A stretch of DNA of 64,000 nucleotides, taken from the NCBI RefSeq assembly GCF_013167455.1, contig NZ_CP038330.1. One strand, given 5' to 3'. Made by a program: the position numbers. Positions 3,001 to 6,000 of the stretch are shown here, piece after piece. Source of the stretch: Escherichia coli O157:H7 (GTDB lineage Bacteria; Pseudomonadota; Gammaproteobacteria; Enterobacterales; Enterobacteriaceae). Each line of letters begins with the position of its first letter. The stretch's first letter is position 1.

Positions 3001-6000
3001 CCGTGCAGTCTTCCCATATCTTCTGTCACAGGCATGAGCCTCAAGCTGGTTGTACTTGGATCTGTTTGCACTTTCCTCCCGGCGCTCACCAGTGATGAAA
3101 AGGATCTTCTTCCCCTTGAAGCGCTCCTGGTTATTAAGAGCTCTGCGGCCAACATCGATCTTCAAGGCTGATGAGCACCACCTTGTTTGGAGTGATGGCG
3201 ATTGCTGAGGGAAACGAAGGCGCGTACCAGGCTTAGAGCGCTTATGGTCTCTAGGCAGCACCAGAAGCCCCTCAGGCGTCTCTACACGATGGGGGTGGCT
3301 ATAGGCATTGTCTTTGAGCATTTCGCCCTCAAAGCCGCCCTCAAGCCACGAGAAGTACATTGGGATACCCAGTTCTTCCCCGAGCTGACGACAGTAATCA
3401 CGCATGAAGGCCCAATCCATCAACGAACTGCCTTCCTGACCATCAACATCATGGTGCCAGAACTCCACCTTTGACTTATCAACACCCATGTCCACCAGCC
3501 GCAAGTACGCAGCAATCGAGTCTTTGCCTCCAGACAGGCAAACAATGATGTGATCGTACAAACTCAGGTCCACATCCGGAGCGGAGAAGTACGTTGTTCT
3601 ATCGTCACAACGCTGACTGGAAGATATGCCGGTAAGAACCGACTCCAGTGATGGCAACACCACCTGGTCATCGAACAAATCTCCTTGGTTTTCTCGTCTC
3701 AACATAAGTCGCTCTTTTTTCTTTACTGGGTTGTTTTTATGATTTACAGTATTATAAAATGATACTGTGAAAAGTAAAGTTTTCAGAACGACTAATCACT
3801 CAGGAGAACTTGATAAGCACCAGAAAGCAATCTAAAGGTGGTTTTTCGGTGAGGTTAGTTCAGGGGCAACCTGCCGCTGCTGATTGGAAATCATCAAGAA
3901 GTGGCTTTTTGGTGGGGTTACGGTTTGAAGGGGTGAGTATGTGGGAACGTTGCACGGTTAAAGGGGGCCGCACATGAAAACGATAAAGCGGTTCATCGTA
4001 TGGGTGAATTACGGTCTTGAGGGTTGGAGCATTTTCGGATCGAGCGATGACTGGGATGAAGCGGTATCCATCCGTTCGGAAGCGATAGACGAATGCAATA
4101 TTGACGAGGAAGACATCATCTTGGCAGAAAACAAAAACGAGCTGGTGGTAAAACCTGCGGCCAAGCAAATGACGGAGTGGCACCGGGAACTGGAAGCCGT
4201 CCTTATGACCTTGGATGACTGCCAGATGGAATGTGACGGTATGACATGGGCAGTAAGCCACCTACTCAATGAAGCGGGTGTACCTCATGACTGCATGTAT
4301 GGCTTTGTGCGAAACGAACAGACCAAGGACATCGTGACACCGCATTTCTGGGTTGTCCTGGATGATGGGTGGCTGGTGGATCTGAGGCTACGCATGTGGC
4401 TGGGCGATCACGACAACATTCCTCACGGGGTATTCCATCCCGATAACGAGCCAGGACTTTTCTACAAGGGAGACCCGGTTCAAAACCATAAAGGGATGAG
4501 ACTGGGCAAAGCCGTCCTGGACATCATGACCGACGGAAAACTTTCACATGTGAAAGTTCCTGAACGACAAGACGGAGAGTAATAGCGTGGAATTTGATTA
4601 CGACAAGTCAGTATCAAACGCACATCTTGAGGCCGCAGGCTGGGGTATGGATGCCTTTAACCACTCCAACCCATTTGAGAGTCATGTCATCTATGTGCGT
4701 GACTACCGCAACGATCACATCCGCCTGTTCACCATCAAGCAGGCTGACTTCGACACGATAAAGCTGCCGCTTCACCTTACCTCCGACATGCTGGCTTCGG
4801 TGATCGCTGAGTTCGTATCGAAGGCAGCAAAAGGGAAGTTGAATACGAAGGAGTCCGACACGCTGGCTCCTGCCTTGGTTGGCTATGCCAAATCAACAGA
4901 AACCTACCGGAGCTGGCGGAGAGTTTCTGGAGCAACAGAGCGATTGCATATGGTCATCAATATCTATGCGGGTTCTGAATTGCTGAGACCTTTCATCGCT
5001 CGGGCTCCTGAGACCGTCCTGACGACCCAAGAGCTACTGGTCTTCTCATCACAGGTTAAGAGCATGGATGTATCCAATCATCCAGAGTGGTTTAGGGGCC
5101 GGAGGTAGTCATGAAGCCAGTTCTCTGGATATTCGTCCTGATCATCGCCCCTTTCGTCATTGCGAAAGTGGACCAATGGCGCAAACGCGGCATTGGAGAC
5201 ACCTGGGCGTGGTGGAAATCAGAGAACATGCCTTATGAGCTGCGCTCGGCCACTCTGTTTTTGTCCGAACAGGACATATCAACCACACAGCCGGTGCCCA
5301 TGCACGGCAGGGTTGATCAGGTGTACCAAACCAAGAATGGGGTTCTCATTCCCTTGGACACCAAGCTGCGCCAGGTAAACCACATCTATGAGTCGGACAT
5401 TATCCAGCTCTCGGTTTACCGGGTAATTCTGTCACACAAGTACAAGGCACCCGTTGCCAAGTACGGCTATGTCCGAACCGTTGTTGAGACAGCGGACGGG
5501 GATAGAGTCCGTTACATCAAGACAAACCTTCTCAGCGAAAAAGAAGTGGTCAAGCTGTGGCACCGCTATCAATCCATCCGTTCTGGTCAGGTAAAAACCT
5601 CCTGTTCCTGTGGCGGAAAGTTTCACATGTGAAAGTTCTGGATTGAATCAGGGTTGCCCGAATTGGGCAGCTAGGCGGGGTTGCATTTTTGAAAAGTCCT
5701 GTACGCTGGTTGGTATAGGAGGTGAATAGTGGCCCAGCTTAAACATAACCGCTTCGTCATGTTGGGGTCCTTGGTAGCGACGGTCGTAGCTGCCGCCAAT
5801 GGCTTGAGTTTTCTCACCCTTATGGCTGGTGGAATGACCCTTCTCCAGTTCATGGCTTGGAAGCAACAAGATGCTGTCCGGAGCCGGTTTAAAGCTGCGA
5901 AGGATGCGTTTGAAGCGTTGAACGTCATTGCGTTCGACAAGCACTGGGTAGGTTCAACCGCGACGGTCGCCAAAGTGTCGAACATGATCACTCCGCCCGA

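Follow-up and report, generated by a model that had tools for sequence, protein, structure and literature searches.

What do three adjacent genes do that are strongly retained on IncC plasmids although no part in replication, partition, transfer or exclusion has been assigned to them? We examined this question for the genes named here g1, g2, and g3, which lie in a 64,000-nucleotide stretch (the window) of contig NZ_CP038330.1 from Escherichia coli O157:H7 (assembly GCF_013167455.1). Numbered from repA, the beginning of the IncC (A/C2) plasmid is identical to the window over the first 11.7 kb, and the three-gene region is 100% identical to IncC plasmids. The three open reading frames (ORFs) were found where an earlier reading of the DNA, called the sequence-only reading below, had placed them, and the same coding sequences are present in RefSeq, where all three are labelled as hypothetical protein, an annotation that they carry on more than 1,000 plasmids. 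Our analysis indicates that g1 and g3 belong to known enzyme families as divergent variants, while g2 represents an unexplained family; no new mechanism has been shown so far. The vcrx names used below follow the pVCR94 coordinates of Carraro et al. 2014 Dataset S1, shifted by an offset of 816 (minus 816).

3974-4582, plus strand: g1 (vcrx009 of pVCR94, R55_6 of R55; WP_000849071), 202 amino acids (aa)
4587-5108, plus strand: g2 (vcrx010, R55_7; WP_000393785), 173 aa, GTG start
5111-5632, plus strand: g3 (vcrx011, R55_8; WP_000805800), 173 aa

The genes are separated by gaps of only 4 bases (g1-g2) and 2 bases (g2-g3), and each of them is preceded by a Shine-Dalgarno-like sequence. A 2-kb stretch spanning the cluster matched 1,052 plasmids in PLSDB, with a coverage of at least 80% in 1,043 and an identity of at least 99% in 756; the hosts of the matching plasmids include Klebsiella, Salmonella, Escherichia, Citrobacter, Providencia, and Vibrio. 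The ratio of nonsynonymous to synonymous substitution rates (dN/dS) was 0.04-0.15 in most comparisons of g1-g3, with values of 0.04-0.05 against the Photorhabdus copy (dS ~0.4-0.5) and of 0.13-0.30 against a near-identical copy that has few changes. The three genes are thus under strong purifying selection, being kept in essentially every sequenced IncC member, and this selection shows that they are real genes and not chance ORFs. The short motifs quoted in the sequence-only reading were also found in the proteins, namely CDGMTWA (g1 residues 87-93), HFWVV (124-128), and DDGWLVD (130-136) as well as GRVD (g3 residues 66-69) and LDTK (82-85). They are not chance matches, because their key residues are conserved across the homologues of g1 and g3.

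The g1 protein gave zero matches in Pfam, NCBIfam, PHROGs, and PADLOC. The search for its homologues yielded 41 proteins, most of them ~135-165 aa long and spanning only residues ~65-200 of g1. When 28 homologues were aligned, with identities down to 26%, the residues C87, H124, and D136 were invariant, and so was the block DLRLRMWLGD..PHG that follows the catalytic Asp. The AlphaFold2 model calculated from this alignment had a mean predicted local distance difference test (pLDDT) score of 90.8. It places C87 at the start of the helix 87-100, H124 on the strand 120-129, and D136 on the strand 134-136, which is the order of Cys, His, and Asp on a helix and the two following strands that the transglutaminase/papain-like superfamily requires. 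Only transglutaminase/papain-like enzymes matched this high-confidence model, and its fold is similar to the solved members of the superfamily. At the sequence level, 3 of the 28 homologues matched PF01841 (Transglut_core) at E<=1e-3 (best 1.3e-4), and g1 itself had no match at E<=10. Residues 1-55 of g1 form a separate small alpha/beta domain in the model, and this part is confined to IncC/IncA plasmids and their nearest relatives. By Kyte-Doolittle analysis, neither g1 nor g2 has a hydrophobic N-terminal segment like that of g3. As modelled, g1 is a soluble Cys-His-Asp protein of the transglutaminase/papain-like fold, and its predicted chemistry is that of a protease, deamidase or transferase. 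The invariant triad and the fold of the model support the transglutaminase or papain-like core that had been suspected from the three spaced motifs.

The g3 protein matched the Cas4 profile TIGR00372 (E 4e-4) with 20.1 bits against a cut-off of 65, as well as five Cas4 models in PADLOC with E down to 9e-7; all its PADLOC matches were of the Cas4 type, and five diverse homologues gave the same Cas4 matches. g3 itself had no Pfam match at E<=10, and 8 of its 22 aligned homologues matched PF12705 (PDDEXK_1). The residues E53, H65-G-R-V-D69-Q, T84-K85, D96, and Q99-x-x-x-Y103 (Q99-L-S-V-Y103 in g3) were invariant among the 22 homologues, and D83 was conserved in at least 90% of them, with E in one homologue. 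Motif II (GxhD), motif III ((D/E)xK), and the QxxxY motif of the RecB/Cas4 set are therefore all present in g3. A Kyte-Doolittle mean of 2.11 over 19 residues was calculated for the N-terminus PVLWIFVLIIAPFVIAKVD, behind which comes a sequence rich in Lys and Arg. The layout deduced from the alignment and hydropathy is as follows.

g3, plus strand: membrane helix at residues ~4-18, then E53, H65-GRVD69, D83-T-K85, and Q99xxxY103

The profiles, the alignment, and the hydropathy agree with the proposal of a PD-(D/E)xK nuclease preceded by a hydrophobic helix at the N-terminus. Its assignment to the NERD type was not upheld: the NERD family (PF08378) matched neither g3 nor its homologues, the motifs are those of the RecB/Cas4 type, and the homologues that have a profile match are recognized by PDDEXK_1 and Cas4 models. 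It should be noted that g3 is not a Cas4 protein proper, as is seen from its score, its iron–sulfur (Fe-S) motif, and its gene context. Namely, the IncC protein has only C165 and C167 (CSCGGKFH, CxCxxxxH) against the four-Cys set of Cas4, which consists of one Cys at the N-terminal side and CxxCx5C at the C-terminal side, and no cas genes (cas1/cas2) were annotated or called around g3 in any locus examined. Distant g3 homologues that lack the helix (P0041-P0045) end in CxxCx5C, the Fe-S motif of Cas4. At the superfamily level only, g3 is a predicted stand-alone, membrane-tethered, Fe-S-less Cas4-like nuclease, and the positive-inside rule would place its nuclease domain in the cytoplasm. One relative, the Photorhabdus khanii copy, carries an internal deletion in g3 by which residues ~75-153 are gone (L014:8525-8804).

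Neither Pfam and NCBIfam nor PHROGs and PADLOC gave a match to g2. When 1.84 billion representative proteins were searched by profile, 220 members of its family were found, and the highly confident model calculated from an alignment of 106 sequences (pLDDT 94, predicted template modelling score 0.90) is that of a soluble alpha/beta protein without a match to any solved structure. As far as the tools used can tell, the model of g2 represents an orphan fold, which agrees with the description of the middle gene as one having no recognizable motif. PDB sequences were likewise searched with a profile for each of the three families, with two sub-alignments of g3, and with one distant homologue, and no meaningful match was obtained. 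More than 2,200 sequenced plasmids, IncHI2 among them, carry a member of the g2 family, and a scan of species-representative genomes returned only four A/C-type loci. In two independent samples, a domain of the g2 family follows an RF-1/GGQ-like peptidyl-tRNA hydrolase domain at the N-terminus of one fused protein (P0142; L019:3073-3789, L020:1985-2701; PF00472; TIGR00019 2e-11), with a DUF4942 gene adjoining. This fusion gives a hint of a possible connection of the g2 family with translation.

Do the three genes form one unit? In-frame fusions of the g1 core with g2 were found in two lineages and differ from each other. The first one, P0152, comes from a short metagenomic contig on which a g3 homologue is the next gene, whereas the second one, P0052 (316 aa), is encoded by an Edwardsiella plasmid (L015), which has CAT AGA in place of the two stop codons. 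A/C-like plasmids with proteins only 43-51% (L002) or 59-76% (L006-L009) identical retain the order g1-g2-g3. Meanwhile, each family also occurs alone. A Vibrio plasmid has the g1 core and g3 without g2. The g1 core alone is found in an SGI1-like island, in a prophage-like region of Cobetia, and on ~1,095 other plasmids; g2 alone is found on the IncHI2 plasmid R478 and ~1,180 other plasmids; and g3 without the helix is found alone in a MOBH element, adjoining genes for a ParB-like protein and topoisomerase III. On about 1,000 Klebsiella IncHI1B/IncFIB plasmids, a g1-core homologue belongs to another operon of three genes (104 aa, 164-169 aa, and 146 aa) near DsbA-family genes. In this operon (L024:5675-6938, L025:5645-6907), the homologue retains the same Cys, His, and DYRLRMW motifs, and the N-terminal domain of the IncC g1 may have its counterpart in the 104-aa protein. 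The occurrence of each family alone on other plasmids weakens the notion of a single obligate three-gene system. Taking together the tight spacing, the kept order, and the fusions on the one hand and the solitary copies on the other, we regard the trio as a lineage-specific assembly in which the link between g1 and g2 is well supported and the link to g3 is looser.

In a collection of phages, g2 and g3 were absent and g1 was found only in two short unannotated records; the three families are thus confined to plasmids and islands and essentially absent from phages. The neighbours of the cluster in its relatives include genes for RdgC, a ParB-like protein, topoisomerase III, HU, H-NS, and DUF4942, which are genes of the DNA-metabolism/establishment type. 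Several variants of the surroundings were also seen. A/C-like plasmids with proteins ~60-76% identical carry an insertion of rdgC and of a gene for a membrane protein of 252 aa, located between g3 and the parS that comes next (L006-L009:9131-10811). The Shewanella profunda copy has an insert of ~430 bp with an extra parS between g2 and g3 (L012:8514-8945). Homologous lipoproteins of ~285 aa (lipobox GC) are encoded upstream of the g1-core gene in two loci (L017:9129-10004, L018:8716-9567); the lipoprotein gene abuts the g1 core in the SGI1-like island (L017) and is separated from it by one small ORF in the Vibrio plasmid (L018), while IncC has no lipoprotein there.

The control of the cluster was then considered from the DNA sites in and around it.

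3706-3973, no strand: divergent intergenic/promoter region of 268 bp, with a sigma-70-like vcrx007 promoter on the minus strand
3746-3768, no strand: perfect inverted repeat ACAGTAT-N9-ATACTGT over the TATAAAAT box, a candidate operator
3939-3957, plus strand: isolated copy of the RepA iteron, ATGTGGGAACGTTGCACGG, ending 17 bp ahead of the g1 ATG
4538-4559 (palindrome 4541-4556, core 4542-4555), no strand: parS, AAAC-TTTCACATGTGAAA-GTTC, inside the 3' end of g1, where it encodes LSHVKV
5617-5638 (palindrome 5620-5635, core 5621-5634), no strand: parS, AAAG-TTTCACATGTGAAA-GTTC, containing the g3 stop codon

The palindrome CTTTCACATGTGAAAG has 8 copies in the window, where 0.01 is expected. The sequence-only reading had the cluster framed by two such palindromes, which it called M1. 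Both of them exist, but the first lies within g1 and the second holds the g3 stop codon, and they are already-described parS sites (PMC10954446). According to the same study, the ParB of IncC has a KorB domain, and 12-14 dispersed palindromic parS sites with the core TTTCACATGTGAAA are present per plasmid. An electrophoretic mobility shift assay showed the binding of three parS copies other than those of the cluster, from which the authors inferred the binding of all 14 plasmid copies; their list includes copies inside R55_6 and R55_08 and one just upstream of the AcaCD box of R55_9/vcrx012 (PMC10954446). Both parS sites of the cluster have the exact 14-bp core and flanks of the AAAC/GTTT type, namely AAAC/GTTC and AAAG/GTTC. 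What we add is that the site embedded in g1 is held unchanged across divergent plasmids: in all g1 homologues checked from A/C-like plasmids and one SGI1-like island (45-100% protein identity), LSHVKV and the exact 14-bp core occupy the same position, so the DNA site constrains the protein there. The core is absent in the Cobetia homologue (L016). Directly downstream of the g3 homologue of the Edwardsiella anguillarum plasmid NZ_CP006665 (L015:9074-9472), the parS core is repeated in tandem to give eight copies, seven of which keep a period of 48 bp; this array is centromere-like, and IncC has a single parS at that place.

The iteron at 3939-3957 is a true member of the RepA iteron family, as had been claimed: it differs from the eight iterons of oriV (1287-1959) by 1-3 mismatches, all of them lie on the plus strand, and the chance expectation is 0.01. 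The copy is present ahead of g1 in the IncC-type relatives L013 and L014 and absent in the more distant L008. We also considered conserved control by RepA and rejected it, as distant A/C-like plasmids have no iteron ahead of g1 and keep theirs in oriV. A small ORF of pVCR94, vcrx008 (3849-3977), overlaps the iteron copy and the start of g1, and its open frame is the sole support for it as a gene. The AT-rich segment of the intergenic region is conserved even where the vcrx007 protein is only ~78% identical, and the inverted repeat at 3746-3768 is likewise conserved in such an A/C-like plasmid (L008). Near-copies of the repeat were found in the backbone at 15029-15051 and 17843-17865, one of them 42 bp past the parS located after the gene of a ParB-like regulator (14429-14977). 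The repeat may be the operator of a further backbone regulator. Scans for promoters and terminators gave no excess of sites over chance, and an Rfam scan of the cluster region gave no match.

The genes on both sides of the cluster and published functional data were also considered.

2138-2572, minus strand: vcrx006, a 144-aa hydrophobic protein, in an operon with vcrx007
2590-3705, minus strand: vcrx007, a protein of the phosphoadenosine phosphosulfate (PAPS) reductase family (DndC/SspD/BrxP-like ATP-pyrophosphatase), divergent from the cluster
5650-5678, plus strand: published AcaCD-binding motif, with a transcription start site at ~5713, driving vcrx012 (5729-6202) and downstream genes (Carraro 2014)

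The AcaCD motif marks the 3' boundary of the cluster, the second parS lying just upstream of it. In the published RNA sequencing (RNA-seq) of pVCR94, the values for vcrx009/010/011 were 8/7/0 in the wild type, 0/0/0 without AcaCD, and 0/0/1 when AcaCD was over-expressed, while the genes from vcrx012 onwards were strongly induced by AcaCD over-expression. According to these published data, vcrx009-011 are almost silent in established carriers and are not regulated by AcaCD. On the other side, vcrx007 matched BrxP, SspD, and DndC weakly in PADLOC and phrog_424 at 5e-34, which suggests a possible DNA-modification function of vcrx007-vcrx006 in IncC. vcrx007 is kept beside the cluster in IncC/IncA and most A/C-like plasmids and is missing there in L015 and L018. 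The oriT of IncC lies upstream of mobI, just before repA, at a distance of ~5-6 kb from the cluster. In the literature that we searched, we found no paper giving a function to vcrx009-011 or their accessions.

Our tentatively favoured reading, to which we give a probability of about one in three, is that g1-g3 form an accessory operon of the IncC/IncA backbone that is expressed transiently on entry into a new host, acts on DNA ends and a protein target, and serves establishment or counter-defence and not replication, partition, transfer or exclusion. RepA and/or the KorB-like ParB, perhaps with another backbone repressor at 3746-3768, would keep the operon off, and its expression would therefore fall mainly in the time soon after entry, before these plasmid DNA-binding proteins accumulate. 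The nuclease domain of g3, on the cytoplasmic side of the inner membrane and thus at the site of DNA entry, would cut or resect DNA ends, and the g1-g2 pair would cleave or modify a host or plasmid protein. In favour of this reading are the near-silence of the operon, its RepA and ParB sites, the proximity of oriT, the establishment-type neighbours in the relatives, the purifying selection, and the g1-g2 fusions. Several points weigh against such a role. Beyond the generic Cas4 fold of g3, g1-g3 matched no known anti-defence or defence protein in PHROGs and PADLOC. The solitary copies (g2 on ~1,180 IncHI2-type plasmids, the g1 core on ~1,095 plasmids, and helix-less g3 in MOBH elements) mean that the three genes need not share one function. 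Control by RepA is not the conserved mechanism, because the iteron is lost in distant A/C-like plasmids. The low RNA-seq counts come from one laboratory condition and could mean just a weak promoter. The topology of g3 is deduced only from the positive-inside rule, and its N-terminus could be a cleaved signal peptide (VIA|K). Finally, the status of a leading region cannot be claimed for the cluster.

A defence module is possible but not probable. The tethered nuclease would then degrade entering phage or plasmid DNA, with g1-g2 acting as a sensor, an activator or a second effector, and vcrx007 may mark self DNA. The pairing of a nuclease with a protease-like enzyme is common in defence, g3 matches nothing but Cas4-type profiles in PADLOC, and vcrx007 is weakly similar to BrxP, SspD, and DndC, which are DNA-modification parts of BREX, Ssp, and Dnd. 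The silence of the genes in unchallenged cells and the confinement of the families to plasmids and islands, with their near-absence from phages, would fit as well. However, g1 and g2 match no family of PADLOC-DB v2, so that the cluster does not belong to the described anti-phage systems by this measure, and the Cas4 matches of g3 are at the level of the fold only (20 bits against the cut-off of 65). Modification and nuclease are not obligately linked either, because L015 and L018 have the cluster without vcrx007 beside it. Moreover, near-zero constitutive expression is unusual for a first-line defence.

It is rather unlikely that there is no single system at all and that three independent accessory genes became neighbours by chance in the A/C lineage, as is typical of shuffled regions of large plasmids. 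The solitary g2 of R478 and ~1,180 plasmids, the g1 core that stands alone (SGI1-like island, Cobetia) or in the other operon of Klebsiella IncHI1B plasmids, the helix-less g3 beside the ParB-like and topoisomerase III genes, and the Vibrio plasmid that has the g1 core and g3 but misses g2 would all be expected in this case. Chance neighbourhood accords poorly with two independent g1-g2 fusions, with the near-abutting spacing of 4 and 2 bp, and with a gene order that is kept at 43-51% identity and is seen again on a short metagenomic contig.

The more specific idea of an undescribed plasmid system around g2 appears quite unlikely to us. In such a system, g2 would direct the thiol enzyme and the tethered Cas4-like nuclease at a host target in the first minutes after entry, after which ParB/RepA would switch the genes off via the intragenic sites. 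Very doubtful is also a toxic module resembling kil, the product or products of which would be harmful if unrepressed and would be held off by plasmid regulators, as the IncP kil genes are by KorA/KorB, for the benefit of retention or host manipulation. The position of the genes between the ParB (KorB-like) sites and the RepA site, their near-silence, and the plausibility of a nuclease and a thiol protease/deamidase as toxins speak for this module; against it, the NCBIfam and PADLOC scans revealed no antitoxin-like gene or match to a known toxin-antitoxin family, and a g1-g2 fusion would be unexpected for a toxin-immunity pair. Although it is conceivable that a nuclease anchored in the membrane destroys T-strand DNA as it comes in, entry or surface exclusion against related plasmids, one of the roles raised in the sequence-only reading, is effectively ruled out by published transposon-directed insertion sequencing (TraDIS) and deletion analysis, in which the deletion of eexC and sfx fully abolished the exclusion of IncC, these two genes thus explaining all of it, and vcrx009-011 were not among the TraDIS candidates (PMC11493245).

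Across Enterobacterales and Vibrio, IncC plasmids rank among the principal carriers of genes for carbapenemases and multidrug resistance. If g1-g3 do aid establishment or defend the host, the cluster would be relevant to the exceptionally wide host range of IncC, and the tools of plasmid-host interaction would gain a Cas4-like nuclease anchored in the membrane as well as a new protein fold. The unchanged parS within the coding sequence of g1 ties the binding of the partition protein to gene control in the IncC backbone. The genes and the flanking sites were already catalogued, and parS is explained in the literature; the assignments of the g1 and g3 proteins and the evidence from the g1-g2 fusions appear to be new.

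Among known systems, the plasmid leading-region genes (ssb, psiB, ardA, ArdC; Samuel et al. 2024, PMC11541004) resemble the cluster in being small plasmid-only genes near oriT that are dispensable for transfer in the laboratory, and the relatives of the cluster adjoin genes for RdgC, H-NS, and DUF4942. In contrast to the leading-region anti-defence genes, the cluster has no homology to any of the listed families and no identified single-stranded DNA promoter. The kil-kor regulon of IncP (RK2) is similar in that IncC has a KorB-like ParB at dispersed palindromes, two of which lie in a silent operon (PMC10954446); the difference is that the repression of the cluster by ParB is only inferred and that its genes are unrelated to klaABC, kilB, kilC, and kilE. 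The nearest known group for g1 are the transglutaminase/papain-like thiol enzymes (PF01841; Streptococcus pyogenes TglA 9crn, LapG 4fgo, protein glutaminase, SseI, and arylamine N-acetyltransferases). Compared with them, g1 has no Pfam match, a very small core (~135 aa), and its own invariant motif DLRLRMWLGD..PHG, and the IncC protein is cytoplasmic, plasmid-borne, and provided with an extra N-terminal domain. With the Cas4/RecB family (TIGR00372, PF12705), g3 shares motif II GxhD, motif III DxK, QxxxY, and the profile matches. Unlike Cas4, the IncC branch of g3 scores far under the cut-off, is devoid of the Fe-S cysteines (CxCxxxxH) and of cas neighbours, and has gained an N-terminal membrane helix.

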